64,000 bases of DNA from NCBI GenBank assembly GCA_007695175.1, contig REEH01000143.1, positions 69,152 through 133,151 on the forward strand, given 5' to 3'. Positions 41,918-61,549 of the stretch are shown one piece after another. Numbering within the stretch: position 1 is the first letter of the stretch; every line of letters starts with the position of its first letter. This stretch comes from Spirochaetaceae bacterium (GTDB lineage: Bacteria > Spirochaetota > Spirochaetia > DSM-27196 > Alkalispirochaetaceae). The position numbers and the translations under genes are program-made. The notes beneath the pieces were generated by a model. The model searched no databases. It had not been told where the DNA came from and saw only the letters and a list, made by a program, of their open reading frames with translations.

Positions 41918-41918
41918 G

Positions 41919-42838: not shown

Positions 42839-42841
42839 GGA

Positions 42842-43042: not shown

Positions 43043-43281
43043 TGTCGGTCGCGGTACGTTATTTCGGACCGCTCCTGGATGTAACCGGTCGGGAGGGAGA
43101 GTCGATTGAACTGGAATTGCCCGCCACGGTAGCGCGTATCGAGGAAGAAATTCTCCGGGTTCATCCGGAACTCCGCCAACGGGAGTTTCGTATCGCCGTG
43201 GACGAAACGTTCCGTGAACGCGATGAGGTCGTGGAAGGTGCGCGAGAGGTTGCTCTTCTGCCGGCGTTCTCCGGCGGGTGA
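43042..43281 (+). CDS. moaD: Molybdopterin synthase sulfur-carrier subunit MoaD
   Basis: 79 aa ending in ...FSGG (C-terminal Gly-Gly). Confidence 0.65.
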   Translation: MSVAVRYFGPLLDVTGREGESIELELPATVARIEEEILRVHPELRQREFRIAVDETFRERDEVVEGAREVALLPAFSGG

Positions 43282-44268: not shown

Positions 44269-44369
44269 GAATCGAGTATGCCGGTTACCGGGCGACTGGT
44301 CCAGTAACGGCTCGCCGGAGGGCCCACCGCTTGTGGGAGACACCCCGATCCCGGTATTCTCCGTTCATC

Positions 44370-45861: not shown

Positions 45862-47250
45862 ATGAAACGGATACGCAGGGGAGCTCTTCGGTTCTCGCTT
45901 CTGGTGATGACAGCTCTCGCGGTGCTCGCGTGCGGCGATCGCGGAGCCGCCGATCCTGGTGATGCCGCAGCCTTTCGCGAAGCCTTCCTGGCGGGCCGCC
46001 TCTCCTGGACGGAGGTGGAAGAACGGGCGGCTCGGGAGGGGGAGGTTGAGTTTTACCACTGGGGCGGAAGCGAGGCTCTCAACAGCTGGATGGAGACCTC
46101 GGCGCGGCCTGATATTGAACGGTACGATATCCGCCTGAATCTGCGCCGGTCCGATACCCGGGACGTGGTGGACCTGATTCTCGCCGATATGGCCACGGGG
46201 CGTGGTCCCGGTGAGGGTACCGTTGATATGGTGTGGATCAACGGTGAGAACTTTCGCACCCTGAAGGACAACGATGCACTGTTTGGTTCTTTTGCGGCGC
46301 TCCTCCCCAATTCACGGTACTTTGCCCTTGATCCCGATGATCCCGCCTCAAGCGTCAATCTCTTTGATTTCGGTACGCCCACGGAACTGATGGAGATGCC
46401 CTGGGCTGCGTTTCAGTACACCTTCCGGATCGATACGGAACGGGTCCGGCCGGAGGACGTCCCCCGTACCTTTGCACAGCTTGAAGAATGGATGCGAGCC
46501 AATCCGGGCCGCTTCGCCTACGTGGCGCCGCCTCATTACATTGGAACAACCTTTGTGCAGACCCTCATGTACGAGAAGAATCCCGACGGCACACGATACG
46601 AGCCGTTTCTCCAGGATCCCGCCGATCTCGGCCGCGGCGAGTTTATCCGGCTCGTGAAACCGGCCTTTGAGTATCTGCGTCGCCTGGAACCATACCTTCT
46701 CGGCGGAGGCGGAACCGAGGGCCGGCGCGGCAGTCCCGTCTATCCCGCGACGGCGGGAGCGCTCCAGTCCCGCTTCGTGGGGGGGGAAGTGGATTTCGAC
46801 ATGGAGTTTGGAGTCTTCGACGTGGATCGGGACATCCGCTCCGGGGTATACCCCGAAAGCGTCCGGAATATCATCTTCCCCGAGTCGGGCATGATCACGG
46901 ACAAGAGTTTCCTCGCAATTCCCTGGAATGCCCCGAATCCCGCCGCCGCCCTTGTTGCGGTAAACGCTCTCTCATCTCCTGCAAGCCATCTTTCGAAGCT
47001 GGCGGACATCGGATACGCACCGGGACTCGATCTGCCCCTTCTTGATCCGGAGGACCAGGAGTCCTTCCGGCAGGCGGCGCCGGACCTGCACGGCGTGACG
47101 GCGGAGGAGCTGGCAAAGCACGAAGCGCCCAACGTGAATGCCCGTTTCGTGGATGTTATCGACGCGATCTGGATGACCTACGTGGCGGAGCGCTCCGAAC
47201 GCGAGTTTGAGGAAATCGTGGCCGATGCCTGGGACAGCGTTGTCCGGTAG
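45862..47250 (+). CDS. ABC transporter substrate-binding lipoprotein (family-1 solute-binding protein, 462 aa)
   Basis: Signal/lipobox LLVMTALAVLAC; large bilobed SBP; no specific substrate motif recognised. Confidence 0.65.
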   Translation: MKRIRRGALRFSLLVMTALAVLACGDRGAADPGDAAAFREAFLAGRLSWTEVEERAAREGEVEFYHWGGSEALNSWMETSARPDIERYDIRLNLRRSDTRDVVDLILADMATGRGPGEGTVDMVWINGENFRTLKDNDALFGSFAALLPNSRYFALDPDDPASSVNLFDFGTPTELMEMPWAAFQYTFRIDTERVRPEDVPRTFAQLEEWMRANPGRFAYVAPPHYIGTTFVQTLMYEKNPDGTRYEPFLQDPADLGRGEFIRLVKPAFEYLRRLEPYLLGGGGTEGRRGSPVYPATAGALQSRFVGGEVDFDMEFGVFDVDRDIRSGVYPESVRNIIFPESGMITDKSFLAIPWNAPNPAAALVAVNALSSPASHLSKLADIGYAPGLDLPLLDPEDQESFRQAAPDLHGVTAEELAKHEAPNVNARFVDVIDAIWMTYVAERSEREFEEIVADAWDSVVR

Positions 47251-47251
47251 G

Positions 47252-48145
47252 ATGTCCAGGAATTTTTTCCGTGACCGTCGTGTGGTGATCTTCCTCGGCC
47301 TCGCCCCCGCGGTGGGGACGCTCCTCTTCCTTTTCGTGGGTCCTTTGCTGGTTGCCCTGGTCCAGAGCCTCGGCCATGCGCCGATCTACCGGGTGCACCG
47401 CTTTCCGACCCTCGAGTTCCATCGACAGGTGTTGTTCTCGACGCGTTTCCGGATAGCGGCGGTGGTCACTCTCTACTACGCCCTGGTGCCGACGTTCCTT
47501 GCGACTCTTCTCGGGGTAGCACTGGCGGTAACCTTCTCGCGCCGCGTTCGGGGCAAACGCTTCCTCAGTTTCTTCTTCCGTCTGCCCCTGGTCGTGCCGT
47601 ACCTGGTGGGTGCCGCCATGGTGGTGGCGCTTTTCGCCAACGGCGGGCTGATCGCACGGTTGTTGTATGCGGCGGGCCTGATTGAGTCCACGGGACAGTT
47701 CCCCCGGATTCTGTTCAGCGCCGGCGGGTGGGGTATCATGCTGGTGTACCTCTTCAAGCAGGTGCCCTTTACCTTCATCATCGTCACCGCCGTACTCTCC
47801 GGCGTGGGCCCGGAATATGAGGAGGCGGCGCGCACTCTGGGAGCCTCCCGCATGCAGGCGTTCCGGTTTGTTCTGCTCCCCAGGATCATGCCCGGCGTCG
47901 TCACATCCTCACTGCTGGTCTTTGCGTTCAATTTCCAGTCCTACGAGATCCCCTACCTGCTGGGGGCTACCTTTCCTGCCACGCTTCCCGTGGAGGCGCT
48001 GCGGCGTTTCAACGTGCCCGACCTGACGCGCCGGCCGGAGGCGATGGCCTACGTTGTTGCCATTACGGTGATCTCCGGTATCGTGCTGTTTGCCTACCTG
48101 CGCCTGTACCGGAGGTGGGAGCGGTCACGGGGAGGTGTAGGGTGA
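47252..48145 (+). CDS. ABC transporter permease (binding-protein-dependent transport inner membrane component)
   Basis: 6 TM; EAA-like loop EEAARTLGASRMQAFRFVLLP. Confidence 0.8.
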   Translation: MSRNFFRDRRVVIFLGLAPAVGTLLFLFVGPLLVALVQSLGHAPIYRVHRFPTLEFHRQVLFSTRFRIAAVVTLYYALVPTFLATLLGVALAVTFSRRVRGKRFLSFFFRLPLVVPYLVGAAMVVALFANGGLIARLLYAAGLIESTGQFPRILFSAGGWGIMLVYLFKQVPFTFIIVTAVLSGVGPEYEEAARTLGASRMQAFRFVLLPRIMPGVVTSSLLVFAFNFQSYEIPYLLGATFPATLPVEALRRFNVPDLTRRPEAMAYVVAITVISGIVLFAYLRLYRRWERSRGGVG

Positions 48146-49005
48146 GGCGAGTATCCGTAACGGGACGGCTCTTTCTGGTGGTCATGCTTCTGGCGTTCGC
48201 CTTTCCCTTCCTGCCGCTTCTGGTCGCCTCCTTCTCATTCCGCTGGCACTGGCCCGCTCTGCTGCCCACGCAGTGGCTCTGGGACGCCCGGGAGACGACT
48301 CCCTTTCCCGTGGGGTGGGATTATCTCTTTTCTCCGATATCCGGCCTGGGTCCCGCATTTCTGAATACCGTGGTAATCGGGGTGGTGACGGCGCTCCTCG
48401 CGGTTGTCCTGAGTCTGCCCGCCGCCCGTGTGCTCGCACGATACACCTTCCGCGGCAAGGGAGTCGTGGAGTTTTTTCTGCTGGTTCCGGTCATCGTCCC
48501 GCAGATAGCGGTGGGCATGGGAATGCTGCTGCTCTTTATGCGTATCGGTATCGCCCGCACCTACGTGGGAATCATCCTCGCACACCTGGTGCCGGCCATA
48601 CCCTACGCGGTGCGGATTCTCACCTCGGTCTTCCAGAATCTCGACCCGCGCTACGAGGAGCAGGCCCGTACTCTCGGCTCGGGATGGCTGAGTACGTTTC
48701 GCCGGATCGTGCTGCCCATGGTGCTGCCCGGCGTCACCACGGCGTTCCTTTTCAGTTTTCTCATCAGTGCCAATATCTTTCTCCTGACCTTCCTCATTTC
48801 CGGTGGTCGCCTTCAGACGCTGCCCACCATGCTCTTTTCCCATATCGAGTCCGGGGCACCTCTGGACGCCACCACGGCGGGCCTGGTCCTGATCGTTTCC
48901 GTTCCGGGTCTGGTCTTTCTCATGATTTCCGACTGGCTTACCGGGGACCACGCGGCCCTGGGACGCACTTCCTTCGGATCCCGGTCAAAAAAGGAACGGC
49001 CATGA
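48142..49005 (+). CDS. ABC transporter permease
   Basis: GTG start (GTGA overlap, GGAGG RBS); EEQARTLGSGWLSTFRRIVLP EAA loop. Confidence 0.8.
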   Translation: MRRVSVTGRLFLVVMLLAFAFPFLPLLVASFSFRWHWPALLPTQWLWDARETTPFPVGWDYLFSPISGLGPAFLNTVVIGVVTALLAVVLSLPAARVLARYTFRGKGVVEFFLLVPVIVPQIAVGMGMLLLFMRIGIARTYVGIILAHLVPAIPYAVRILTSVFQNLDPRYEEQARTLGSGWLSTFRRIVLPMVLPGVTTAFLFSFLISANIFLLTFLISGGRLQTLPTMLFSHIESGAPLDATTAGLVLIVSVPGLVFLMISDWLTGDHAALGRTSFGSRSKKERP

Positions 49006-50105
49006 CCGATATAACACTGCACGGTGTCTCCAAGACCTACGACATGGATCCAGTCGTCCGGGATCTCACGCTTCACGTGCCGGCGGGGACGATGTTCGGG
49101 CTTCTTGGACCGAGCGGATGCGGCAAGACAACGATACTGAGAATGATAGCCGGCCTGCTGGAACCCGATTGTGGCGATATCGCCTTTGATGGCGTCTCCG
49201 TGCTGTCGGTGCCTACGGAACGGCGCCGGATCGGGATGGTTTTCCAGCAGCACGTGCTCTTTCCGCATATGACCGTTGAGGAAAACGTTGGTTTCGGGTT
49301 GCGCATGCAGGGCGTGAAGCTGAGGCAGGCACGGCCCCGGATCGATGAGGTGCTGGAGCTTGTACAGCTGGGAGGGTACAACCGGCGCTTCCCCGGGCAG
49401 CTCTCCGGAGGGCAGCAGCAACGGGTTGCCCTCGCCCGTGCAGTCGTAACCGATCCGGTGGTACTGCTCCTGGACGAACCGCTTTCCAACCTTGATGCGC
49501 GCCTGAGGGACGACATGCGCGTGTTGATCCGGGATGTGCAGCGCCGCCTGGGTATCACCACGATATTCGTCACGCATGACCAGGCGGAGGCGATCGAGCT
49601 CTCGGACCGGATGGTGGTGCTATTCGAGGGCGAGGCGGCGCAGGAAGGGCCGCCGGAAGAGGTATTTGAGCGGCCGGTCAGCAGCCGGGTCGCGCGCTTT
49701 CTCGGTTCCACCAATCTTATTCCCGTGCAGGTTCCGGTATACCCTGAGGAAGGGTGGGTGGATGCGCCTTTCGGCAGGGTTGCCGTATGCTGCGGCGGAT
49801 ACGCCGGGGGATCGGTGCCCCGGGAGCTTCTGCTTTCCGTCCGTTGCGAGCACATATCCCTGCACGGGGAGGACTCTCCGGGAACGGTCGGATCGGACGG
49901 GATCAACACCTTCCACGGACGTGTGCTGGATTCCGTTTTCAAGGGGGGTCTGATCTTCTACCGGGTGGACCTGGAGGGCTTTCCCGTGGACGTGATCGAT
50001 CGGTCCGACCGCCAGTTTGTTCCGGGTGCCCGCGTCGTCGTCCAGTTACCCGAGCAGCACCTCTGGGTGATGCCTGCTGTGGAGTATGATGGCGGCCCCG
50101 TATAG
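49002..50105 (+). CDS. ABC transporter ATP-binding protein with C-terminal TOBE-like domain (PotA/FbpC/MalK type)
   Basis: Walker A GPSGCGKTT, signature LSGGQQQRVALARA, Walker B LLLDEP, H-loop; ATGA overlap. Confidence 0.85.
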   Translation: MTDITLHGVSKTYDMDPVVRDLTLHVPAGTMFGLLGPSGCGKTTILRMIAGLLEPDCGDIAFDGVSVLSVPTERRRIGMVFQQHVLFPHMTVEENVGFGLRMQGVKLRQARPRIDEVLELVQLGGYNRRFPGQLSGGQQQRVALARAVVTDPVVLLLDEPLSNLDARLRDDMRVLIRDVQRRLGITTIFVTHDQAEAIELSDRMVVLFEGEAAQEGPPEEVFERPVSSRVARFLGSTNLIPVQVPVYPEEGWVDAPFGRVAVCCGGYAGGSVPRELLLSVRCEHISLHGEDSPGTVGSDGINTFHGRVLDSVFKGGLIFYRVDLEGFPVDVIDRSDRQFVPGARVVVQLPEQHLWVMPAVEYDGGPV

Positions 50106-50166: not shown

Positions 50167-50811
50167 CTATGCTCCCAGGTGCCTGGCGGCCCACGCTACG
50201 CGCTGTATGGTGCTTATCAGTCCCGCGGCCGCCGCCACGATCGCGACCTCAACGACAAAACCGGGAACCCCCAGAAGCAGGCCGTACACCAGAATCGTCT
50301 CGGTCCCTTCGATAAGACCATGGGGCATTTCCACGGAAGTCTCATACGCACGGGCCGCGCCGGCGGCTTCGGCTTCGGCCGCGCCGGAGGAGCGGCGCTT
50401 CTCCAGGAGCGCCGAGAGATAGCTCCAGGAAGCGATGTTCATATAGAAGGCCGACATCATGAGAAGAATCGCCGTCGTGACAGCTGGTTCCGACCGGGCG
50501 TACACTATCCCGAGAGGGATCAGGGCGTAGACCAGGACGTCGCTCATCATATCCACGTACCCTCCGAAGTCACAGGCTTCTCCCCGGGCACGGGCAACCT
50601 CTCCGTCCAGGCCGTCGGCGAACCGGTTGGCCAGCCAGAACAGGAGGGCCGGCAGGGGCATACCCGCGGCCGCGCTGAAAGCGGCGCCGAGACCCATTGC
50701 CAGGGCCGCCAGCGTGATCGGCATCGGGCCGACGCGGCGGCCCAGCCAGCGTGCAAATCCGCCCACAAGCCGGTGCTTGACCCTGCGCATCGCCAAATCA
50801 ACCATGATCAC
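50167..50811 (-). CDS. CDP-alcohol phosphatidyltransferase family protein
   Basis: DGLDGEVARARGEACDFGGYVDMMSD = D-G-x2-A-R-x8-G-x3-D-x3-D motif. Confidence 0.7.
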   Translation of the reverse strand: MIMVDLAMRRVKHRLVGGFARWLGRRVGPMPITLAALAMGLGAAFSAAAGMPLPALLFWLANRFADGLDGEVARARGEACDFGGYVDMMSDVLVYALIPLGIVYARSEPAVTTAILLMMSAFYMNIASWSYLSALLEKRRSSGAAEAEAAGAARAYETSVEMPHGLIEGTETILVYGLLLGVPGFVVEVAIVAAAAGLISTIQRVAWAARHLGA

Positions 50812-50885: not shown

Positions 50886-51440
50886 ATGAAAAAACTCGAC
50901 CGGTATCTCTCTCGCGCTTGGGCCGAGGGCAAACTGAAACAGATCGCTCCATTTCTTCCGCCCTCGGGCCGGATGCTGGACATCGGGTCCGGCCGGGGGA
51001 CAATCACCGGAATTCTTCGCCGGCGGGGGTACGGGGTAACGCCCCTGGACATCCGCGACCGCAGCATCGATTCCGATCTCAGACCCCTTCTCTACGACGG
51101 GGAAGCGATACCCTTTCCGGACGATTCCTTTGATTGCGCCCTGTTGCTCACGGTGCTGCATCATACCCCCGATCCCGTAGCGGTCCTGCGTGAGGCGGCT
51201 CGCGTGGCGCCTCAGCTTATCATCATCGAGGACGTCTTTTCCAATTCCCTGCAGAAACAGCTGACCTTTTTTACCGACAGTCTCTTCAATTGTGAGTTCC
51301 GCGGGCATCCGCACTCCAACAGGAGGGACGGGGAATGGCGGCGCGTCTTTGAACAGCTGGAGCTGACCCTTGCGGAGGAGCAATCTCGGAGAGTACTCCT
51401 CTTCTATCGGCAACAGGCGTACAACGTTCTCCGGAAGTAA
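50886..51440 (+). CDS. Class I SAM-dependent methyltransferase
   Basis: MLDIGSGRGTITGIL (motif I). Confidence 0.65.
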   Translation: MKKLDRYLSRAWAEGKLKQIAPFLPPSGRMLDIGSGRGTITGILRRRGYGVTPLDIRDRSIDSDLRPLLYDGEAIPFPDDSFDCALLLTVLHHTPDPVAVLREAARVAPQLIIIEDVFSNSLQKQLTFFTDSLFNCEFRGHPHSNRRDGEWRRVFEQLELTLAEEQSRRVLLFYRQQAYNVLRK

Positions 51441-51489
51441 TGGTACGCCTTCTCCGGCAGGAAAAGCACCCCGAATCCGTTCGCTGATC

Positions 51490-51521
51490 GAAAAAAAGTC
51501 CCCGACAGAACGTGTCGGGGA
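51490..51521 (-). terminator. Intrinsic terminator: 10-bp stem GTCCCCGACA/TGTCGGGGAC, loop GAACG, U7 in the minus sense
   Basis: Read directly ~45 nt downstream of the rhodanese-DedA stop. Confidence 0.6.
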
Positions 51522-51564
51522 CCGAAAGATCAGGATTTCTCCTTTCACCGCGTTCGGGACAGCC

Positions 51565-53253
51565 TTAATCGAGGACGTCCGCCACGCCCGCTTTCTTTTT
51601 AAGAAGCTTGGGCAGGAAGGAGAGCCCCACCAGGATTATGGCGCCGATCGCGAAATAGATCATGATCGTTCCCAGATCCGCACCGGAGGCGGCTGCTCCG
51701 GCAATGAATACATACGCCATCGTTCCGGGCAGCATAAAGAGCCACGAGAGAAGAGCGAATGTTACGAAAGGTATCTTCGTAAGCCCGTAGACGTAGTTCT
51801 GCACGTTGAAGGGAAAAAGAGGTACAAAGCGCGTGATCATGAGCATGCGCCACCCGTTGCGCTCCACGCCGTCGTCGATCTTCTTCAGCTTGGGGTTCTT
51901 GGCCACCAGGTTTTCCGCAAAGCCCCTGAAGGCGTACCGGCCCAGGAGAAAAGCCAGGGAGGCACCGATGGTGGACCCGATCGAAGCCCAGATAGTACCG
52001 AAGATGGGGCCAAAGACGATGCCCGCGACGATTCCGAAGGGACCTCCCGGGAGGAAGAATACGCAGGCGGCGATGAAGAGCAGCATGTAAACAACCGGAC
52101 CCAGCAGGCCGAAGCCCTCAATCCACATCTGCAGTTCGTTGATCCTGCTCATACTGATCAGGCTGAAGAGGTTGAAGAACCACATCAGGAAGATGGCGTA
52201 CACCACGAGCAGAAGGATGTCCACCTTCATGAGTCTGCTGGTTTTTCCCTGCTTGATCGTCTTGAAGTGGATCGCTCCTATGAAGAGGATTCCCACGATG
52301 AAGACTCCGCTCACGATATAGAGGAAGTACGCCGTGACGGGGCGATCCCGATGGTAACTCCACTCGATCCAGGATCCATCGTAGTTGCTGACGTTGGGAT
52401 ACCCCAGCATATCCGCCAGGACGGTGGTGGTCATGGCGGAGCGGACTCCGGACTGGCAGTAGGCGATAATCTCCTTGTCGGGAGTGATGCCGGCTGCCTC
52501 GTAGAGCGCCCGCAGCTCCGCGGCGGGTCTGATGCCGCCGTCGGTGAAGTTTTCCGTGAAGTTCACATGAATGGCGCCGGGTATATGTCCCTTGCGGAAC
52601 GCCCCGTCATACTGGGCGATTCCCCACCACTCCTCGGGAGTGCGCGTATCCAGAATGATCACGTTGGGATCCTTCCGGGCCCGGTCCAGGTCTTCCAGGC
52701 GAGCCAGGCGGGACTCGTCGATCGCGCGGGCCGGGCGGTAGGTCACGGGGGTGACTGTGGGAGCGTCCGTGCTGGTGGGCAGGCCCGCCGCGCTCCAGGC
52801 GGGGAAGAAACCGTCCAGGACGTGAACCTTGTCCCGGTCGTGGCCGTACATCGTGATGAGCCAGGCAAAGCGGAAGGAATCGTGGCCGCTGCTGTGGGTA
52901 TAGACGATCACCCGGGTGTCCGTGTCGATTCCCAGGTTTCCCAGAAGCTCGTGAATCTTCTGGGGGTTGCCGCGCATACCGCGGTAATCGTACTCACCGC
53001 TCGAGGCGCCGTACATCGGACGCCATACGTTGACCGCGCCGGGAATGTGGCCCGCCTCGTACTGGGCCGCCTGACGGACATCCACGAAGACGACGTTGTC
53101 CTCGGTCTGCATGAGGTGATGTGCCCGGGCCGGGCTGATCAGTACGTTCGATTCCACGTACTCCTGATATTTGGGCTCTATCTCAACTCCAGAGACGGCA
53201 GCCACCGAGACTGCCGTCATTACGACGAAGAAAACGAAAAGCGACCGTTTCAT
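51565..53253 (-). CDS. Fusion protein: signal peptide + tandem rhodanese domains + DedA/TVP38 (VTT) membrane domain
   Basis: Start MKRSLFVFFVVMTAVSVAAVSG after AGGAGG. Rhodanese 2 has the catalytic CQSGVRS. The C-terminal ~230 aa are polytopic with a DedA-like G-x3-G/LPGGP pattern (FLPGGPFGIVAGIVFGP). Confidence 0.7.
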   Translation of the reverse strand: MKRSLFVFFVVMTAVSVAAVSGVEIEPKYQEYVESNVLISPARAHHLMQTEDNVVFVDVRQAAQYEAGHIPGAVNVWRPMYGASSGEYDYRGMRGNPQKIHELLGNLGIDTDTRVIVYTHSSGHDSFRFAWLITMYGHDRDKVHVLDGFFPAWSAAGLPTSTDAPTVTPVTYRPARAIDESRLARLEDLDRARKDPNVIILDTRTPEEWWGIAQYDGAFRKGHIPGAIHVNFTENFTDGGIRPAAELRALYEAAGITPDKEIIAYCQSGVRSAMTTTVLADMLGYPNVSNYDGSWIEWSYHRDRPVTAYFLYIVSGVFIVGILFIGAIHFKTIKQGKTSRLMKVDILLLVVYAIFLMWFFNLFSLISMSRINELQMWIEGFGLLGPVVYMLLFIAACVFFLPGGPFGIVAGIVFGPIFGTIWASIGSTIGASLAFLLGRYAFRGFAENLVAKNPKLKKIDDGVERNGWRMLMITRFVPLFPFNVQNYVYGLTKIPFVTFALLSWLFMLPGTMAYVFIAGAAASGADLGTIMIYFAIGAIILVGLSFLPKLLKKKAGVADVLD

Positions 53254-53284
53254 GTAAGGTCCTCCTGATATGGTCTTAAAGGAA

Positions 53285-53309
53285 CGCCCGATGCTTTTGC
53301 TATCGGGCG
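53285..53309. other. Palindromic hairpin (8-bp stem CGCCCGAT/ATCGGGCG, 9-nt loop) between the HdrB-like and rhodanese-DedA genes
   Basis: Read directly; followed by UUCCUUUAAG in the minus sense. Confidence 0.3.
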
Positions 53310-53319
53310 ACACCGGGTG

Positions 53320-54087
53320 TCAAGCCAGAACTTTCTCGATGCTTTTCTTGGCCTTCCTGCGGTTTTTCCAGGATTCGACCGTCGATCCTGCTCCGGGGAA
53401 GGGCGTTTTTGAGGTCCATGGACCACCAAATACAAGGTCAAGGATGTGCAGCGACTGCTTGCCTCCCATCATCATGGACATGCGGCAAGCCGCGCAGTAG
53501 GTGACCATGTAGTCCGATTGCACCTCGCTGGTGCGGTTTTTCATTATCCGCTGAGCAAGATCAGGATTGGCGGGCAGCACCATTCCGCCAAAACCACAAC
53601 AGAGCGTTGTCATTTTGGTGTGCGCCGGTTCCTCGTACTTGTATCCCAGCTCGTCCATGATCCAGCGGATTCCCTCGTGGATATCCGGGCGATACCGGGT
53701 TGAGCAGGAGTCATGAATGGCAAAGGTGATGTCGCTATCCTTACCGATACCCCTGACCTCCTCCGGAAGGCCGATCTCGGGAAGAATCGTCCAGAGGGAC
53801 CGCACCTTCTGCTTGGGGCTGTACTCGGAGAGCGTGAGGAAACAGGACTGACACGCCACGATCACCTCTTCCGCGTCAAGCCGGTCGATCTCGGACTGTA
53901 CACCGGCGTACCGCTTCTTGAACTGGTCAATCTGCCCGAGAGCCTTGGTGGGTTTGCCGCAGCACTTGAGAATCGCTCCCGTTCCCGGCAGGTGGTTCTG
54001 CAGGTGCACCAGGGTCTTCTGTACAGCCATGGGATTGTATGAGGGCAGACTGCATCCCGGAAAGAAAACTCGTTTCGTGGTACTCAT
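53320..54087 (-). CDS. CCG-domain Fe-S protein (HdrB/GlpC-like)
   Basis: Two Cys-rich CCG repeats: PGCSLPSY...LKCCGKP and DSCSTRY...LCCGFGG. Confidence 0.7.
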   Translation of the reverse strand: MSTTKRVFFPGCSLPSYNPMAVQKTLVHLQNHLPGTGAILKCCGKPTKALGQIDQFKKRYAGVQSEIDRLDAEEVIVACQSCFLTLSEYSPKQKVRSLWTILPEIGLPEEVRGIGKDSDITFAIHDSCSTRYRPDIHEGIRWIMDELGYKYEEPAHTKMTTLCCGFGGMVLPANPDLAQRIMKNRTSEVQSDYMVTYCAACRMSMMMGGKQSLHILDLVFGGPWTSKTPFPGAGSTVESWKNRRKAKKSIEKVLA

Positions 54088-55898
54088 TTCCCACCTCCTG
54101 TGGGGGCTGTCGGCTGGTTGGTGCCGTTCCTGGCCGGGCGGGACGTATTGAAGAGGCGGGAAAAGCTCAGCAGCTGGTGCATGTCGATCACCTTGTGACC
54201 TTTCATCGGAGACTTGCCCCCGTTATTCATTACCATCTCCTTGCGCATGTTCATGAACGCATCCTGGAGTTTGAAATCCTTGGGACATACCAGCGTACAG
54301 GTACCGCACATGTTGCAGGAGTACGGAACGACCGGATCGACCTCGCCGGCGATAAGGGCATCCTTGAAGTATTTCTTGGGGCAATCCGGGGAGAACTCTT
54401 GGAGCATGAGACATTCCTTGACGCAGAGGCGGCATTCGCACTGGAGACAGCGCGACGCCTCCTCCACAGCCTGCTCCTCCGAGAAACCGAGATCAACCTC
54501 GGTGAAACTCCGCATGCGGGTGGCGATATCAAGCTTGCGCGTGTTGACGCGCTCCGGGTTTGTATCATCCGCGGGTATGGACGTTTCCAGATTAGTACGG
54601 TAGCCCCGTTCGTGGTCGCGCTGGATGCGCATGTCCTTGAGGTTCAGGTACCGGTGGAGCGATTCCGCCGCGATACGGCCTTCCGCCATAGCCTCAACCG
54701 CCATGAGGGAGATGCCCGTTCCGTCTCCGCAGGCAAACACTTTGCGGATGTTGGTCTGGAGTGTTTTCTCGTCCACGACAAAGCGTCCGCCGCGACCGAC
54801 CTCCACGGAGGTTGCAAAATCGCTGTCCACGCCCTGGCCGATCGCGAAAATCACCATATCCGTCTCTACGATCTCCTGGCAGCCCTCGTCGTAGGCGGGA
54901 TTGAAGCGCCCCTTGGGGTCAAAGACCTGGATACACTTCTTGAGGATGATCTGTTCAACCTTGTCGTCGCCCTTGATCGCTTCAGTTCCCCAGCTGTTGT
55001 GGAGGATCACGCCTTCCTCAAGCGCTTCCCGGACTTCCCAGTCGTGGGCGAACATCTCCTTGATATCTTTCTCAAGACAGACCAGGTGCACTTTTTCCGC
55101 ACCCAGCCGGACGGCGGTCCGGGCGGAGTCGAGCGCCACGTTTCCACCACCTATCACGGTGATCCGTTTGCCGAATCCCTTGTAGGTGCCGGTGAGACTG
55201 ACTTCCCGCAGGAAATCGACCGCCTGGATCGCTCCGGGCAGATCCTTGCCGTTTACCGGAAGCTTGAACCCTTTGTGGGCGCCTATAGCGATTACCACGC
55301 CATCGTAGGTGTCGACGATTTCCTGGAAAGGGATATCCTTGCCCACTTCAGTGGCCAGTTTGATCTTGATTCCCATACGGTGGAGCAAGCTGTATTCCGC
55401 ATTGATAATTTCCCGGGGGAGCCGATAGGAGGGGATCCCCACGTAAAGCATGCCCCCCACGACGGGGTGTTTCTCGTAAACTGTTACGCTGTAACCCTGG
55501 CGGCGTAAATCAAGCGCTGCCTGAGCACCGGCGGGACCGGAGCCGATGACGGCGATTTTTTCCGGGCGGTCCGGCTCCCGGGTTACGTCCCAGTCAAATT
55601 CATCGTCATAATTGTCCGCCGCAAAGCGCTTGAGGGAAGCGATGGACATGGCGTTGCCAACCTCGTTGCGCTTGCAGTGTTCCTCACAGGGGTGAGCACA
55701 AACTCTCCCCAGGGATTTAGGCAGAAAGAGTTTCTGCCGGATTGTCTGTATCGCTTCCTTGTACTTGCCTTCCGCAATGAGGTTTACGTACCCCTTGACG
55801 TCCGTGTGCATGGGACACGCCGTGTGACAGTACGGGGGCGCATCACCCATACAATCCTCAATGACCGGAAGCATCTCCCTGACTGTATCAGCCTTCAT
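54084..55898 (-). CDS. FAD/NAD(P)-dependent oxidoreductase, GltD-like (glutamate synthase small-subunit fold) with C-terminal 2x[4Fe-4S] ferredoxin domain
   Basis: N-terminal Cys cluster, VIGSGPAGAQAA and VIGGGNVALD Rossmann motifs, C-terminal CLQCECRLCVKEC...CNMCGTCTLVCP. ATG 55898 after GGAGG (the ORF-track start is a TTG 12 nt upstream). Confidence 0.75.
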   Translation of the reverse strand: MKADTVREMLPVIEDCMGDAPPYCHTACPMHTDVKGYVNLIAEGKYKEAIQTIRQKLFLPKSLGRVCAHPCEEHCKRNEVGNAMSIASLKRFAADNYDDEFDWDVTREPDRPEKIAVIGSGPAGAQAALDLRRQGYSVTVYEKHPVVGGMLYVGIPSYRLPREIINAEYSLLHRMGIKIKLATEVGKDIPFQEIVDTYDGVVIAIGAHKGFKLPVNGKDLPGAIQAVDFLREVSLTGTYKGFGKRITVIGGGNVALDSARTAVRLGAEKVHLVCLEKDIKEMFAHDWEVREALEEGVILHNSWGTEAIKGDDKVEQIILKKCIQVFDPKGRFNPAYDEGCQEIVETDMVIFAIGQGVDSDFATSVEVGRGGRFVVDEKTLQTNIRKVFACGDGTGISLMAVEAMAEGRIAAESLHRYLNLKDMRIQRDHERGYRTNLETSIPADDTNPERVNTRKLDIATRMRSFTEVDLGFSEEQAVEEASRCLQCECRLCVKECLMLQEFSPDCPKKYFKDALIAGEVDPVVPYSCNMCGTCTLVCPKDFKLQDAFMNMRKEMVMNNGGKSPMKGHKVIDMHQLLSFSRLFNTSRPARNGTNQPTAPTGGGK

Positions 55899-56172
55899 GA
55901 AAACCTCCAAAAATATTCTGTCCCTCGGGACGTTACCGACCGGTACGTGCCGAAGTATGTCTTCTACGAAGCGCGGTGCATAAACGCGGTGAAAAATCCA
56001 ACTCGATATCGCTTCGTATTATGTGATTATCGTAACTTAAAATACGACTCGGGTCAATTATAACGCGGAAAAATCATGACGATTCGTACAATCGAGCGAT
56101 ATAGAAGGATATTTCTTTCGTAATTTGTCCGGTTATCTTATCATGAGTTGTTTATTAATAGAATTCAATCAC

Positions 56173-56215: not shown

Positions 56216-57526
56216 CTAGTAGAGGTAGCGGAATCCCAGTGCGAGGGTGGCCGACTCCGCACGGCCCCAGCCGTATACGCTGGTATCATCTCCGGCCTGG
56301 ACCGACACGAAGGCGAGCATGTGGAATCCCTGGAAAACGTTCCACGCTACGCCGCCGGTTATCTCGGCGGATGCATCGATCGGGGACACCAGGCCGCGAC
56401 CGATCACCTGCACCGTCCGACCCGCCCCCCATACCAGCTCCGGGTGCAGTTGCACCGCGTATCCGGCTTCAGGATTCCGGAGGTCGTTCCAGGCGCCGGC
56501 GGGGGTAATCAGCGCTTCCAGCCGCGCCGCCAGGGTATGGTCCCGGCCGATCGGGAAGAGATAAAACGCGCCGAGGCTGAGCAGGGAGTAGTCTTCCAGC
56601 ACGTGTCCAATGCGCCCGCGGCCGGGTGGGGGACCATCCTCCGGCAGATGCAGGGCAGCGGCACCGTAGAGATCCGCCCCGAGGCTTCCCTGCAGCGCGA
56701 TCGCGGTACGGTGCACCCCGGCGGAACCGTCATAGAGCCAGGAGGGTTCCACCGTGAGAGGGCCCGCGGAACTGTGCAGGCGCAATCCCGCTCGGGAGTC
56801 CGCCGCCGGCGCTACCGCGGTCGCCCCGTTGCCGGTGGTGCCGGTGGAGGGGCTGCCGTCCGGATCGTCCGGGTAGTCCTGGGCGGCATTCGCTGTCCCG
56901 CCCAGGCTCAGTTCGGGCAGGGGCGGCAAGGCGACCGCCTCCAGATACCCCAGCGCACCAACGGGGAAATACAGCGCGAGAAGCCACGTCGTCTCATCCC
57001 GCACATCCTCGGACCGGGTGAAGTCCGCGGTGCTCCGCCCGTCGGCGCCAAAGATCAGGTCCGCCGCGTTGAAAAGGGACCCCAATCCCCAACTGAGACG
57101 ATCCCTCCCGGTGGTGACGCGCATCGAGTATTCTTCGGTCAGGGGGAAACGGAACCGGATGCTCGCCCGGGGGACTTCAAGGAATGCCGGGGAGGACGCG
57201 CCGGAGGAGTCCTCCAGCAGCGTCAGGCGCAGCTGGAGCCGGGACTGGACGTTTCGGTCTCCGGCGGAGCGAAAGTCCACCGTTCCCCGGGTCAGACCGG
57301 TGAGACCCAGTTCCTCACCGGTCCAGACCGTAGCGGCGAAACTCTCGATCTCCGTCTGGACGCGCGTCTCCGCGCCGAGAACTCCCGCCCCGCCAAGGAG
57401 CAGTACCATTGCCGCCGCGGTCGTCGCGCCTCTCAAGGCGCCACGCACGACGCCACGGCCGGCCCCACGGCCGGCGCCACGCCCCGTCTCGAACGATGCC
57501 CGCTTCCTCTGCTCCAGCGTTACCAT
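56216..57526 (-). CDS. Putative outer-membrane beta-barrel protein with Arg/Gly-rich N-terminal region
   Basis: Ends ...LALGFRYLY (aromatic C-terminus typical of OMPs); alternating beta-strand-like pattern; N-terminus MVTLEQRKRASFETGRGAGRGAGRGVVRGALRG before the hydrophobic MVLLLGGAGVLGA. ATG 57526 overlaps the upstream gene by 7 nt. Confidence 0.5.
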   Translation of the reverse strand: MVTLEQRKRASFETGRGAGRGAGRGVVRGALRGATTAAAMVLLLGGAGVLGAETRVQTEIESFAATVWTGEELGLTGLTRGTVDFRSAGDRNVQSRLQLRLTLLEDSSGASSPAFLEVPRASIRFRFPLTEEYSMRVTTGRDRLSWGLGSLFNAADLIFGADGRSTADFTRSEDVRDETTWLLALYFPVGALGYLEAVALPPLPELSLGGTANAAQDYPDDPDGSPSTGTTGNGATAVAPAADSRAGLRLHSSAGPLTVEPSWLYDGSAGVHRTAIALQGSLGADLYGAAALHLPEDGPPPGRGRIGHVLEDYSLLSLGAFYLFPIGRDHTLAARLEALITPAGAWNDLRNPEAGYAVQLHPELVWGAGRTVQVIGRGLVSPIDASAEITGGVAWNVFQGFHMLAFVSVQAGDDTSVYGWGRAESATLALGFRYLY

Positions 57527-58317
57527 GTCAGCGCATCCAGGGAGAAGATATTCCGGGGCAGGCTTACCCCGAGGCGTGCGGACTCGATAATCATTTCGGT
57601 ACCGCTGGAGCGGCGAGTCTCGTCCACGACTCGCATGCGCGACGGAAAGTGGTATCCGTCCCGGCGCATCGTCTCGAGAACGTGGACAGTTTTGAGCAGC
57701 CGTCCGCTCCGGGCAAACTGCTCCGCCCGACGCAGAACAAACTCCTCCCGGTCGACCCAGTAAACCTGGCGGGGGTAGGCTACGCTGGTGGTACGCGCCA
57801 CCAGCTCCACCTTGTACGAGGGATATCCGTCGACCTCATCCTCACCGATCAGGGTGAACCGGTAGTCTGACGCGAGACCCCGTCCGCCGGTCATGTCCTC
57901 GTAGGAGATGTCCGATCCGAGCAGGTTGTCCCGCAGGGCGGCGCCCTGGAGCCTGATTGTTTCGCGCGCGTCCGGGTAATAGAGGTAGAGGCTGTCGTCA
58001 CGACGCAGCACCCGCTGCCCCTCCTCCGCACGGGAGGTGAACTCTACCAGGAAGCGGTCCGCTCCCTCGCTGTGAGCGATGTAGGTACTGGAGCGGTCGC
58101 CGAAACGATCGCTGATTACCAGGCGCCCCTCGATGATCGCCGTTGAGTGCGTCTGGTTCGCCTCCATGCGCTCGATGATTTCATCGGCGGTGAGCGCCTC
58201 CGCCCGGGGGGGTGTCGCGAACAGGAAGCTCGCCGGAAGCAGCCATGCAGATATCAGTATACGCATACCGGCGCGGGTAATATTTCGACCGATTCGTTTC
58301 TTCTCAGAATTATGCAT
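57520..58317 (-). CDS. LolA-like periplasmic protein (outer-membrane lipoprotein-sorting protein family)
   Basis: Signal peptide MRILISAWLLPASFLFA; ~230-aa soluble domain of the LolA-like family usually found next to MacB/FtsX-type ABC permeases. Confidence 0.6.
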   Translation of the reverse strand: MHNSEKKRIGRNITRAGMRILISAWLLPASFLFATPPRAEALTADEIIERMEANQTHSTAIIEGRLVISDRFGDRSSTYIAHSEGADRFLVEFTSRAEEGQRVLRRDDSLYLYYPDARETIRLQGAALRDNLLGSDISYEDMTGGRGLASDYRFTLIGEDEVDGYPSYKVELVARTTSVAYPRQVYWVDREEFVLRRAEQFARSGRLLKTVHVLETMRRDGYHFPSRMRVVDETRRSSGTEMIIESARLGVSLPRNIFSLDALTW

Positions 58318-58368: not shown

Positions 58369-59598
58369 TCACTCCGCCCGCAGCGCCTCCACCGGCCGCA
58401 GCTTTGCCGCCCGTCGCGCCGAGGGGTAGGTGGATACCATTGCCACGGCCAGGCCGAAGAAGAACACCAGCACGGTGGATCGCACATTCAGCACGGGGTA
58501 GAGCACGCTGGAGAGATCCATCTCCACCATATCCATGGCGGAACCGAAGTCGATGCCGATCCTGGAGAGTGGAATCGTAATCGCCACGCCGATCACCACT
58601 CCGACAAAGGATCCGATCGCCCCGAGGTACGCGGACTCCAGGAAGAAGAGGCGCACCAGCTCCCCACCGTGCATCCCCATCGCCGCGAGGGTACCGATCT
58701 CCCGGGTCCGCTCGTGGATGATCATCATGGTGGTGCTGATGATCACCGTGCTGGCCAGCAGGAAGAAGATCAGTGCGACGATGTTGTACACGACGCCGGC
58801 TGTCCGCAGGTAGGAGTACCCACCGCTGATCCGCGTCCAGGGAACGACGCTGAGCTCCGTCCTCCCTGATTCTTCAAGGAACGACCGCACACCATCGGCG
58901 AACTCCACGGTGTCACCACCGACACTCTTCAAGAGAATCTCGCTCGCCGCACCGTCCATCCGCATGTACCGGTCCGCGTTCTCGATCGGAAGGATATACC
59001 CGCTGCTGTTGAGCTGCGGTACGGGGAAGTCAGCCAGGCCTACCACGTCCAGGGTGAACGCGTTGGACCCGCGCCGGCGGGTCTGGATCAGAAACGTGAC
59101 GATATCCCCCGTTCCGATGTCCAGATCCGAGGCCAGACCGCGTCCGAGGATCGCCTCGTTGGTCCCGGATCGTGGAAGGCGCCCCGCCGCGATGACTCGC
59201 TCGAGATCCTGGTATTCCTGCTCCCGTTCCAGATCGAGGCCCAGCCCCAGAGTAGCAAACTGCTGTTCACCCCGGAACGCTGCTCCGAGAACGCGAATGC
59301 GGGGACTCACCGTTCTCACCTCAGGGTGCGCGCGGAGCCGGTCCACCAGGTCCCGGTAGTCCCCCACCACGTACTGAACGGGATTCAGGTACTCGTACCG
59401 GTCAAATTCGGCGTGGCGCAGGCGCACTTCCCCGGCGTCCCAGTCCCAGGAGTTGGTCTGGATGTTCGTTTTAATCCCCTCAAAGAGGGAAAAGAAGATG
59501 GTGATCGAAGTGGCCGCTACCGCCAGGGCAAGGATCGAGAGCAGACTGCGTCGCTTGTTTCTGAATATGTTCCGCAAAGCGATTCCTGACAGTCTCAT
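58369..59598 (-). CDS. ABC transporter permease, FtsX/MacB-like (4 TM + large periplasmic domain), copy 1
   Basis: MRLSGIALRNIFRNKRRSLLSILALAVAATSITIF...; C-terminal FtsX domain; ATGA overlap with the upstream stop. Confidence 0.8.
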   Translation of the reverse strand: MRLSGIALRNIFRNKRRSLLSILALAVAATSITIFFSLFEGIKTNIQTNSWDWDAGEVRLRHAEFDRYEYLNPVQYVVGDYRDLVDRLRAHPEVRTVSPRIRVLGAAFRGEQQFATLGLGLDLEREQEYQDLERVIAAGRLPRSGTNEAILGRGLASDLDIGTGDIVTFLIQTRRRGSNAFTLDVVGLADFPVPQLNSSGYILPIENADRYMRMDGAASEILLKSVGGDTVEFADGVRSFLEESGRTELSVVPWTRISGGYSYLRTAGVVYNIVALIFFLLASTVIISTTMMIIHERTREIGTLAAMGMHGGELVRLFFLESAYLGAIGSFVGVVIGVAITIPLSRIGIDFGSAMDMVEMDLSSVLYPVLNVRSTVLVFFFGLAVAMVSTYPSARRAAKLRPVEALRAE

Positions 59599-60866: not shown

Positions 60867-61549
60867 CACACGCTCCGTTTCTCGTCGCTCTCGATCTCTC
60901 CGTCGTGCAGCCGGCAGAGGCGCCCGGCGTAGTCCATCACCATCGGATCGTGGGTTGAGAAGACAAAGGTGGTTCCCCGGTCATGGTTGATGCGCTTCAT
61001 GAGCTTCAGAAGAGCCTCGCCTGTTCCGGAGTCGAGATTAGCCGTGGGCTCGTCGGCGAGCACGATCAGGGGTTCCTTGATAAGAGCCCGGGCGACGGCC
61101 ACCCGTTGCTGCTGACCACCGGAGAGTTTGGACGGCCGCCGGTTCTCCATTCCTTCCAGTCCGACTTCGTGGAGCAGGGTCATTGTCCGTTCACGGATCT
61201 CTCCCCGGGGCAGTTCAAGCATCTCCAGGACGATCGCTACGTTCTCGTAGGCCGAAAGTACCGGGATGAGGTTGAAACTCTGAAAGACAAAACCGATCTT
61301 GTGGCGCCGGATCTCCACCAGCTCCTTTGCCTTTCGCCGCGCGAGTTCTTCACCATCGATCGAGATTTCTCCGCCGTCGATACTGTCGATGCACCCGATC
61401 AGGTTGAGCAGGGTAGTCTTTCCAGATCCCGATGGACCTGCTATGGAGAGAAACTCGCCCCGCTCGATTTCCATGGAGACACCCCGCAGAGCGTGCACCT
61501 TGATGTCCCCGTCGATGTAGTCTTTCTTCACGTCCTTGATCGTGATCAT
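60866..61549 (-). CDS. ABC transporter ATP-binding protein (LolD/MacB-ATPase/YtrE-like)
   Basis: Walker A GPSGSGKTT, LSGGQQQRVAVARAL, Walker B VLADEP, H-loop FSTHD. Confidence 0.85.
   Translation of the reverse strand: MITIKDVKKDYIDGDIKVHALRGVSMEIERGEFLSIAGPSGSGKTTLLNLIGCIDSIDGGEISIDGEELARRKAKELVEIRRHKIGFVFQSFNLIPVLSAYENVAIVLEMLELPRGEIRERTMTLLHEVGLEGMENRRPSKLSGGQQQRVAVARALIKEPLIVLADEPTANLDSGTGEALLKLMKRINHDRGTTFVFSTHDPMVMDYAGRLCRLHDGEIESDEKRSV

Follow-up and report, generated by a model that had tools for sequence, protein, structure and literature searches.

A stretch of 64,000 nucleotides (nt) of contig REEH01000143.1, from a metagenome-assembled genome (MAG) of a spirochaete of soda-lake origin, was analyzed over its whole length (here called the window; GC content, ~60%). 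Three minus-strand open reading frames (ORFs), which lie head to tail in the region from 51565 to 55898, encode a GltD-like NAD(P)H flavoprotein, a protein with CCG motifs, and a protein in which a tandem rhodanese is fused to a DedA domain of the YdjX type. The architecture that they make up is well supported, with a sulfur-transfer site at the outward opening of a DedA domain of the YdjX type and a chain of NAD(P)H, FAD, Fe-S, and CCG centers in the cytoplasm. The gene set points to an undescribed route for sulfur or selenium across the membrane, for which we infer the donor, the species that is transported, and the CCG-site reaction.

The rhodanese-DedA fusion and its membrane topology

The fusion ORF (51565 to 53313, minus strand) probably starts at the ATG at 53253, which gives a protein of 562 amino acids (aa), the length to which all homologues align. 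It shares 100% identity with P0001, which NCBI lists under “Spirochaetaceae bacterium” (locus tag EA427_10940). Pfam finds Rhodanese in two stretches (E = 4.3e-40; 136.7 bits against a cut-off of 22.2), arranged as in tandem rhodaneses (PF00581) of the TST/MST type, with the catalytic cysteine in domain 2 and none in domain 1. The active-site loop in domain 2, CQSGVRS, which holds Cys266 in the 562-aa numbering, is kept in 11 of 13 aligned fusions. The closest relatives in the PDB are two-domain sulfurtransferases (8k55 at 5e-38; 1uar and 1e0c at ~1e-35), with Escherichia coli YnjE at 1e-15. The rhodanese part of an AlphaFold2 (AF2) model has a predicted local distance difference test (pLDDT) score of ~90; the domain arrangement in that model was not taken as evidence.

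The C-terminal part of the protein matches VTT_dom in Pfam (E = 3.5e-26; 92.5 bits against a cut-off of 33.9). With phmmer, it finds YdjX at 3.2e-38 and YdjZ at 8.3e-16, E. coli DedA and YqjA are unmatched at E <= 10, and a neighbor-joining (NJ) tree groups it with YdjX. On these matches, the DedA half is assigned to the TVP38/COG0398 (YdjX-type) branch. According to the topology scheme of bioRxiv 10.1101/2020.12.18.423352, its core consists of reentrant loop 1 (LPGGP), transmembrane helix (TMH) 1, a K/R-rich cytoplasmic region, reentrant loop 2 (TRFVPLFPFNVQNYVYG), TMH2, and a C-terminal transmembrane (TM) segment, and the C terminus, KKK, is predicted to be on the cytoplasmic side. LPGGP and PLFPFNVQNYVYG are invariant in 26 fusions. 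The DedA part of the aligned fusions has invariant P/G/R/N/Y columns and no conserved cysteines, and no solved structure matched it.

A first-pass annotation of this DNA, made from the sequence, had described a single polypeptide joining a signal peptide, two rhodanese domains, and a DedA domain, and this description is borne out. Its domain calls and the CQSGVRS site are confirmed by Pfam and NCBIfam, and there is no trace of the frameshift or stop codon between the rhodanese and DedA regions that it had named as the possible undoing of the fusion: the ORF is continuous, and independent assemblies of spirochaetes carry fused orthologues that are 55 to 85% identical to it. As judged from these orthologues, the fusion is not an assembly or frameshift artifact. 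The gene ends given at that stage were right as to the minus strand, with the likelier start codons lying slightly inside them.

The search for Rhodanese and VTT fusions that the same annotation had suggested yielded about 28 sequence clusters (grouped at 90% identity) carrying both Pfam domains. A second fused group, with 34 to 41% identity and 505 to 519 aa, was found in Fusobacteriota in the genome scan, and among the mapped loci the two domains are fused only in Spirochaetota and Fusobacteriota. In the spirochaete fusions, the rhodanese and the DedA core are separated by two additional TM helices, the second of which corresponds to the N-terminal TM segment of YdjX, whereas fusobacterial-type fusions are without both. 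In an NJ tree of the DedA domains, which has no bootstrap support values and is indicative only, the fusions of each phylum group apart from those of the other, and unfused genes are nested among the fusobacterial ones. The separate clades, together with the two different linker designs, argue for the fusion having arisen at least twice independently.

The N-terminal hydrophobic stretch of the fusion (hydropathy of 2.43 over residues 5 to 23, with K and R ahead of it) has an equivalent in 61 of the 67 rhodanese ORFs of related loci. Loops 329-345, 426-489, and 548-562 are K/R rich, whereas loops 365-382 and 518-528 are K/R poor, and the linker helices flank a K/R-rich loop that is predicted to be cytoplasmic. 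Loss of two helices leaves the sidedness the same, so that in both fusion types the rhodanese would be on the side from which reentrant loop 1 is entered. In the experimentally verified topology of TMEM41B, the N terminus is inside and a TM segment is followed by a loop entered from the far side (bioRxiv 10.1101/2020.12.18.423352), and E. coli YnjE is reported to be periplasmic (PMC10215317). The signal sequence, the positive-inside pattern, the parity of TM segments, the TMEM41B scheme, and the location of YnjE thus lead us to predict that the rhodanese lies outside the cytoplasmic membrane.

DedA-rhodanese fusions of COG0586 (e.g., P. aeruginosa PA1209) have been noted in print, and the connection was called unclear (PMC10127716, PMC12893004). 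They likewise have DedA and rhodanese in one polypeptide, but with an N-terminal DedA domain of an undecaprenyl phosphate (UndP)-flippase-like branch and a single C-terminal rhodanese, whereas the order in the window protein is reversed (signal peptide, tandem rhodanese, and C-terminal YdjX/TVP38 domain of COG0398). PspE, Sud, ExtH, and TsoB are exported rhodaneses acting on an external chalcogen, as is proposed here for the window protein, and TsoB, a rhodanese/DsbD-like fusion selenoprotein, is also similar in that its rhodanese is tethered to a membrane redox conduit. The NCBIfam matches of the fusion to ExtH (73.8 bits against a cut-off of 200) and TsoB (36.9 bits against 805) are weak. 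Unlike in those systems, its membrane partner is a cysteine-free DedA domain and the reductase appears to be a separate cytoplasmic enzyme.

Individual loci show further variation. Fusobacterial copies without the catalytic cysteine have SRSGEGS or SQSGVES in place of CQSGVRS. In a Psychrilyobacter MAG (L028; 5858 to 7387), TAG replaces a conserved Trp in the fused copy, which looks like a decaying paralogue; the contig also has a second, unfused set of DedA, rhodanese, and ferredoxin-CCG genes. Selenoprotein readthrough at this site was rejected, since the stop is TAG and not TGA and the catalytic cysteine is also gone. A Spirochaetia MAG from Salar de Ascotan (L009; 8569 to 11689) has a tandem partial duplication, in which the CCG gene and the full-length fusion gene enclose a CCG fragment and a truncated rhodanese-DedA gene (369 aa; P0014, annotated as “sulfurtransferase”). 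In L003, a spirochaete relative, a gene of the mercuric-reductase/glutathione-reductase type (Pyr_redox_2 and Pyr_redox_dim; 9891 to 11231) is directly 3' of the fusion, and the small ORF and the gap past the fusion in L005 hold nothing conserved.

The reductase and its association with rhodanese and DedA genes

The HdrB-like and GltD-like genes are directly upstream of the fusion gene on the same strand, as had been reported. The GltD-like ORF (54084 to 55910, minus strand) probably starts at the ATG at 55898, with GGAGG 7 nt ahead, and its stop codon is overlapped by 4 nt by the start of the CCG gene, which in turn is separated from the fusion gene by 66 nt. Upstream of the operon is an AT-rich spacer of 300 nt that holds a promoter-like site. 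Because of the 4-nt overlap, the 66-nt gap, and the terminator at 51523 to 51497, the three genes are read as one self-contained operon with its own promoter-like site, ribosome-binding site (RBS), and strong terminator (Table 1). Two plus-strand ORFs, one of 632 aa (51370 to 53268) antisense to the fusion gene and one of 489 aa (54039 to 55508) antisense to the GltD-like gene, have no family support and were rejected as shadow ORFs of GC-rich DNA; gene callers that rank by ORF length could choose the wrong strand at both places.

The GltD-like protein has the domains of the GltD/NfnB/SudA family, namely, Fer4_20 (E = 4.9e-26), which is the N-terminal 2x[4Fe-4S] domain found in GltD/NfnB/DPD-type enzymes, and Pyr_redox_2 (E = 2.3e-34), with the FAD and NAD(P) Rossmann motifs GSGPAG and GGGNVA. 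It matches PRK12771 with 419 bits. The tandem 4Fe-4S motifs that the first-pass annotation had seen in it are present, and they form a C-terminal ferredoxin domain (Fer4_17, 2x[4Fe-4S]; CLQCECRLCVKEC and CNMCGTCTLVCP). The CCG protein has the motifs CX29CCX35CXXC and CX34CCX33CXXC, both complete and of the HdrB or HdrD C-terminal type. The name HdrB-like is therefore apt for the two motifs, but together with the ferredoxin domain the unit is HdrD-like: the motifs indicate an HdrD/DsrK-like arrangement of one ferredoxin domain and two CCG motifs, divided between two genes. All cysteines of the ferredoxin domain and the CCG motifs are invariant across 28 fused homologues, and homologues of the CCG protein in Clostridia and Halanaerobiales are 70 to 75% identical to it. 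No TM segment or signal was found in either protein, and because neither has a hydrophobic segment the GltD-CCG reductase is predicted to be cytoplasmic.

Against NF045663 (“diclust_near_Sec,” pyridine nucleotide-disulfide oxidoreductase/dicluster-binding protein; 759 positions; cut-off, 530 bits), the GltD-like protein scores 276.7 bits and the CCG protein scores 225.6 bits. Their coverage is complementary, with the GltD-like protein covering the N-terminal two thirds (positions 9 to 201 and beyond) and the CCG protein covering positions 419 to 662. Elsewhere, the GltD and CCG parts often form a single protein of 710 to 890 aa, and some of these proteins pass the cut-off (564.8 bits in L039). 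NF045663 is the top match of all 28 fused GltD-CCG orthologues beside rhodanese/DedA genes, and these pass or approach its cut-off. By these profile matches, the window reductase is classed as a split relative of NF045663: the two proteins jointly cover a family protein of ~759 aa, but they come from two translationally coupled genes, and neither reaches 530 bits alone.

Two more familiar identities were considered and rejected. A glutamate synthase small subunit is ruled out, as all GltD/gltA equivalog scores are below threshold (TIGR01316, 282 against 471.75 bits), and no GltB large subunit or NfnA partner was found near the GltD-like gene. A true heterodisulfide reductase is ruled out by subthreshold scores and absent partner subunits; genes for HdrA, HdrC, HdrE, and DsrC were not found in the neighborhood of the operon, and the host is a spirochaete. 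A PDB search with the CCG protein gave one weak match (9ojn, 1e-4). The 2x[4Fe-4S] ferredoxin domain followed by two complete CCG motifs is shared with HdrD, DsrK, HdrB, and the sHdr system, and the association with a sulfurtransferase is shared with sHdr, TusA being encoded in other lineages of the window-type system. However, the electron donor here is a GltD-like NAD(P)H flavoprotein, not HdrA/HdrC, HdrE, or DsrM, and, unlike in sHdr, the rhodanese is predicted to be extracytoplasmic and there is no LbpA, DsrC, or HdrA nearby in the window. In HdrB and DsrK, the CCG clusters are disulfide-cleaving sites, and persulfide or disulfide reduction is the chemistry that we infer for the window enzyme.

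A scan of one genome per GTDB species gave 80 loci, which were mapped together with other fetched loci by means of reference proteins; 86 related loci were counted, and those with at least 4 kb on both sides are called full-flank loci. The first-pass annotation had made its reading depend on whether the redox pair co-occurs with rhodanese and DedA genes elsewhere, and it does. Of the 56 full-flank loci, 39 encode a CCG partner no more than 10 kb from the DedA gene, usually together with the GltD part; the same is true of 27 of the 32 in which the rhodanese is adjacent or fused (seven phyla) and of all five from Spirochaetota (5/5). Contexts seeded with the CCG protein led to the same cluster in 4/4 cases (Orenia, Vibrio, Salipaludibacillus, and Clostridium carboxidivorans). 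Rhodanese and DedA are encoded by neighboring genes in most loci of Bacillota, Synergistota, Acidobacteriota, and Gammaproteobacteria, and in Desulfobacterota the reductase gene sits between them. Since the gene order varies among phyla, the conservation would seem to be one of function and not of descent alone. The two independent fusions and the HdrD-like reductase that travels along through seven phyla argue that rhodanese, DedA, and reductase act together.

The wider locus and its E. coli counterpart

A larger conserved system had been missed in the first-pass annotation; it takes in an ABC importer and a CDP-alcohol phosphatidyltransferase, has homology to an E. coli gene cluster, and has selenium-associated neighbors in other lineages. 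In blastp searches against E. coli K-12, the halves of the fusion match YdjX (39% identity, 2e-36) and YnjE (31%, 3e-17), and the importer proteins match YnjB (6e-40), YnjD (2e-31), and YnjC, the last of which matches both permeases. The substrate-binding protein scores 283 bits against NF008633/PRK11622 (the YnjB family; cut-off, 203), and no solved structure matched it. A YdjX-type DedA domain, a rhodanese predicted to be exported, a YnjBCD importer, and a YnjF enzyme are thus clustered together as in loci of the ydjX-ynjF type, and the window locus is, by these matches, homologous gene by gene to E. coli ydjX-ydjY-ydjZ-ynjA-ynjB-ynjC-ynjD-ynjE-ynjF (b1750 to b1758).

Both systems have an exported rhodanese (predicted in the window) and a redox protein. 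The window rhodanese, however, has two domains and not the three of YnjE, and it is covalently fused to DedA. A tblastn search of the whole window found no YdjY or YnjA (AhpD-like) at E <= 1e-3; the GltD-ferredoxin-CCG reductase stands where these are absent, and the window adds a methyltransferase. The locus of C. carboxidivorans (L090), with VTT-YdjY-VTT beside a ferredoxin-CCG protein, bridges the two forms. In E. coli, FNR directly activates ydjXYZ-ynjABCD and ynjE. The nine genes of that cluster carry generic annotation names, and a literature search (E. coli gene names, DedA, rhodanese, selenium, and heterodisulfide) found no paper assigning a function to it; the physiological substrate of YnjE has been described as unclear (PMC10215317).

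The importer was detected in 26 to 28 of the 86 related loci, and the CDP-alcohol phosphatidyltransferase gene was detected in 20. The methyltransferase, which matches NF045667 (DVU_1556 family) weakly (45 bits; cut-off, 155), occupies the same position in other spirochaete loci and is present in L007 to L010 and L051. The importer genes are directly downstream of fdhD-mobA on the same strand, next to a formate-dehydrogenase/molybdenum cofactor (Moco) block whose FdhA/NuoF pair is NAD linked; the order from MoaE through MogA, FdhD, and MobA to the substrate-binding protein is kept in L007. No tRNA or Rfam family was found in the window.

Neighboring genes in other lineages give clues to the cargo. 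Split YedE/TsuA-like Sulf_transp genes and TusA occur in 10 to 11 loci of other lineages, and extra rhodaneses are found in such loci as well. For the LysR regulators in other lineages, the best NCBIfam model is that of the selenium-metabolism LysR in 14/14 cases, with scores around the cut-off. This type of LysR and the YedE-like halves occur in loci of Bacillota and Fusobacteriota. The selenium-metabolism subfamily is confined to organisms that have SelD (PMC5322559). In E. coli, selD is ~5.6 kb beyond ynjF (L006/L091; K-12 positions 1,840,783 to 1,848,008), with the unrelated genes nudG, ynjH, gdhA, ynjI, and topB between; this linkage was treated as a probable coincidence, though a notable one in view of “near_Sec” in the name of the reductase family.

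Clostridial, Halanaerobial, and Fusobacterial loci encode TIGR04283 and TIGR04282 (both above the cut-off), a kinase of the APH/choline-kinase type, and a nucleoside hydrolase, a set that points to sugar or alcohol activation. The two TIGR families, which bear the name “arsenosugar biosynthesis glycosyltransferase,” occur in L013, L014, L020, L039, L041, L087, and L090. Neither a radical-SAM ArsS nor an ArsM turned up among the recurring families or in what Pfam listed for L087 and L090, with no direct search made for either, and the arsenosugar names may not describe the role of these families in this cluster. TIGR04283, TIGR04282, the APH kinase, LysR, and the YedE halves are absent from the window.

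A further arrangement is seen in Acidobacteriota (L022, L027, L031, L053, L061, L062, L075, L078, L079, and L085) and in Desulfobacterales (L050). There, the genes of the NF045663 reductase and of the rhodanese/DedA pair are separated by a stretch that encodes an 850-aa NuoG-like molybdopterin oxidoreductase, which scores below every formate dehydrogenase and NuoG equivalog cut-off, along with NuoE/NuoF-like proteins, a histidine kinase, and a response regulator. Also encoded in the vicinity are additional proteins of HdrD-like and DsbA-like type and membrane proteins without annotation. These loci may represent a separate version of the system that is linked to NADH.

Table 1. Positions of the operon, its parts, and neighboring genes in the window
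Feature	Position	Strand	Basis or remark
Sigma-70-like promoter candidate, TTGACC-17-TACGAT	56029..56057	-	Consensus scan; pattern match only
GltD/NfnB-like NAD(P)H Fe-S flavoprotein gene	54084..55898	-	Pfam, NCBIfam, Cys motifs, RBS
CCG protein gene, two complete CCG motifs	53320..54087	-	Pfam CCG E = 6.3e-16, two stretches
Signal peptide or signal anchor of fusion (MKRSLFVFFVVMTAVSVAAVSG)	53185..53253	-	Hydropathy
Tandem rhodanese module, ~aa 38-300	52354..53142	-	Pfam, PDB relatives, alignment
Two linker TM helices, aa 310-328 and 346-364	52162..52326	-	Alignment, hydropathy, charge counts
YdjX-type DedA/VTT core	51565..52161	-	Pfam VTT_dom, phmmer, conserved columns
Putative intrinsic terminator, 11-bp stem with 7 G-C pairs, then TTTTTTT	51497..51523	-	~40 nt past fusion stop codon
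Class I S-adenosylmethionine (SAM)-dependent methyltransferase	50886..51440	+	Pfam Methyltransf_11/23; convergent with fusion gene
YnjF-like CDP-alcohol phosphatidyltransferase	50167..50811	-	Pfam CDP-OH_P_transf; YnjF 34% identity, 4e-16
YnjBCD-like ABC importer	45862..50105	+	NCBIfam, blastp
Substrate-binding protein	45862-47250	+	Importer part
Permease	47207-48145	+	Importer part
Permease	48115-49005	+	Importer part
ATPase	49002-50105	+	Importer part
Formate-dehydrogenase/Moco block	34351-45766	mixed	Upstream of YnjBCD-like importer
NuoG-fused FdhA	34351-37230	-	
NuoF-like gene	37230-38810	-	
MoeA	39733-41136		
MobB	42305-42838		
MoaE-like gene	43278-43739		
MogA	43729-44343	-	
FdhD	44331-45161		
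MobA	45158-45766		
436-aa exported protein	56216-57526	-	Upstream of operon; no Pfam/NCBIfam family; kept in L007
LolA-like protein	57520-58317	-	PF17131, 1e-47
Apparently polytopic membrane ORF	58369-59718	-	FtsX/MacB-type permease by eye only
Apparently polytopic membrane ORF	59595-60869	-	FtsX/MacB-type permease by eye only

Proposed mechanism and alternatives

The first-pass annotation had pictured a compact relay from NAD(P)H to a persulfide. The relay is right in spirit but is not a direct one: with the rhodanese predicted to be outside and the reductase inside, electrons could not reach the rhodanese persulfide directly, so that DedA or its cargo must couple the two sides. The reading that we favor, which we hold tentatively as possible but somewhat short of probable, is that sulfur or selenium is captured outside, transferred by way of the DedA domain, and released inside by a reduction that NAD(P)H drives. 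Outside, the exported tandem rhodanese, held at the periplasmic mouth of the DedA domain, would load sulfane sulfur onto Cys266 as a persulfide, with thiosulfate and polysulfide as examples of a donor; where a lineage uses selenium, this element might be taken up as a perselenide instead. The atom would then be handed to an acceptor, which would be carried through the membrane by the DedA domain. Either a small thiol or a lipid head group could serve as this acceptor, and the YnjBCD-like importer and the YnjF-like CDP-alcohol phosphatidyltransferase may supply it. Inside, electrons would pass from NAD(P)H to FAD, through four [4Fe-4S] clusters, and on to two CCG clusters, and the reductase would cleave the S-S (or S-Se) bond, freeing sulfide or selenide and regenerating the acceptor. 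Sulfurtransferase cascades feed Hdr-like complexes (bioRxiv 10.1101/2023.12.18.572138).

Several observations weigh against this reading of capture, transfer, and reductive release. CCG proteins also belong to enzymes other than disulfide reductases (GlpC, LutA, and GlcF). The catalytic cysteine is lost in some fused homologues (P0030 and L028), and the membrane part of the fusion in the AF2 model is only moderately confident (predicted template modeling score [pTM], 0.55). In Acidobacteriota, the reductase is ~7 kb off, beside a NuoEFG-like molybdoenzyme, and could serve another partner there. As regards selenium, tblastn with E. coli SelD found no selD within 10 kb in the 86 loci or in the window, and the window has no sign of selenium use, the FdhA ORF being uninterrupted. 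E. coli YnjE has poor activity with thiosulfate and mercaptopyruvate (PMC10215317), and DedA proteins are understood as lipid or polyprenyl-phosphate flippases, not as sulfur carriers (PMC10127716).

The cargo may instead be a lipid itself, acting as a membrane-bound carrier of a thiol or persulfide (or of an S/Se/As-sugar). The YnjF-like enzyme would then make an unusual phospholipid or lipid-linked compound whose head group is brought by the importer, DedA would flip the lipid, the tethered rhodanese would modify or use the head group outside, and GltD-CCG would reduce or regenerate it inside. The YnjF-like enzyme would be replaced in Clostridia by a kinase, a CofC-like nucleotidyltransferase, and a GT2 enzyme. 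This fits with the lipid scramblases and flippases among DedA/TVP38 relatives (PMC10127716; bioRxiv 10.1101/2020.12.18.423352), with the co-clustering of the CDP-alcohol transferase and the importer seen in the window, E. coli, and at least 20 loci, and with the sugar or alcohol activation route suggested by TIGR04283, TIGR04282, the kinase, and the nucleoside hydrolase. We nevertheless regard it as unlikely: such a lipid is not known, the CDP-alcohol transferase gene is in just 20/86 loci (though many contigs are short), the accessory sets vary by lineage, and the CDP-alcohol transferase and methyltransferase genes of the window are separate transcription units. Distinctly unlikely, in our estimate, is a lipid-linked chalcogen shuttle, comparable to undecaprenyl phosphate for glycans, in which the cluster would build and cycle a lipid-anchored thiol carrier: the YnjF-type enzyme would join an imported head group bearing a thiol (or an S/Se/As-sugar) to a lipid, which would be flipped out by DedA, loaded with sulfane sulfur or selenium by the rhodanese, flipped back, and stripped of that atom, as sulfide or selenide, by the NAD(P)H-GltD-HdrD reductase.

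A flow in the opposite direction, of reductant toward the outside as with DsbD or CcdA, would involve no net sulfur import: cytoplasmic NAD(P)H would keep a diffusible or lipidic thiol reduced via GltD-CCG, and DedA would export that thiol, which would keep the rhodanese cysteine or other exported thiol proteins reduced or would detoxify external polysulfide, selenite, or tellurite. Periplasmic rhodanese/DsbD-like fusions do form a curated family (NF045694, TsoB), although its match here is weak, and the commonest fusion partners of COG0398 DedA proteins are pyridine-nucleotide disulfide oxidoreductases (PMC10127716). The oxidoreductase gene directly downstream of the fusion in L003, the DsbA-like thioredoxin_4 protein of acidobacterial loci, and the AhpD-like YnjA of the E. 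coli cluster are in keeping with such export, as is a link of DedA to selenite resistance (Ledgham 2005, as cited in PMC10127716). However, the DedA part is without conserved cysteines, so any electron transfer would need a carrier, and the ABC importer and the YedE/TusA-type uptake neighbors would be left unexplained, which makes this a quite doubtful account. We consider it very unlikely that the system supports the maturation or supply of formate-dehydrogenase-type molybdo- or tungsto-enzymes, whether with sulfur for the sulfido ligand or molybdopterin, with selenium for selenocysteine, or by handling thio-molybdate or thio-tungstate in sulfidic brine. Its appeal is in the setting: the importer follows fdhD-mobA, with moeA, mobB, moaE, mogA, and FdhA/NuoF just upstream and the synteny kept in L007; at least 12 acidobacterial loci have FdhA/NuoG-like and NuoF-like genes within the cluster, and L050 has them directly next to the DedA gene; and E. 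coli YnjE is annotated as a molybdopterin synthase sulfurtransferase in a cluster that FNR activates. Yet most loci of Bacillota, Fusobacteriota, and Gammaproteobacteria have no Moco or formate dehydrogenase genes within 10 kb, YnjE-type rhodaneses are exported whereas Moco synthesis is cytoplasmic, and the substrate-binding protein is of the YnjB type, not of the ModA, TupA, or WtpA type. The least probable of these accounts is that nothing specific couples the parts, DedA being envelope housekeeping, the rhodanese merely anchored, and GltD-CCG a hitchhiker in the operon. Such a lack of coupling would suit the 17/56 full-flank loci without a CCG partner within 10 kb and the catalytically dead rhodanese copies, but it is at odds with a neighborhood kept across seven phyla in rearranged order, with two independent gene fusions, and with the four of four CCG-seeded contexts that led back to the same cluster.

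All of the individual domains are already known, and the reductase has a curated NCBIfam model without a function. In the literature that we searched, there was no description of an N-terminal, exported tandem rhodanese fused to a YdjX-type domain, of the recurrent partnership of such fusions with NF045663 reductases, or of the correspondence between the entire locus and the ydjX-ynjF genes of E. coli. To our knowledge, the bacterial TVP38/COG0398 DedA proteins have no assigned substrate. The fusions and the reductase that travels with them turn a set of y-genes into one testable hypothesis, that of transmembrane transfer of sulfur or selenium with reductive release, and thus offer a concrete hypothesis for three groups of proteins without a function, with E. 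coli as the test organism. If the selenium link holds, the system would be a candidate for an additional route of selenium acquisition in anaerobes. A lipid-linked shuttle, if true, would be the first substrate-level function for a bacterial TVP38-type DedA protein and for the E. coli ydjX-ynjF genes.

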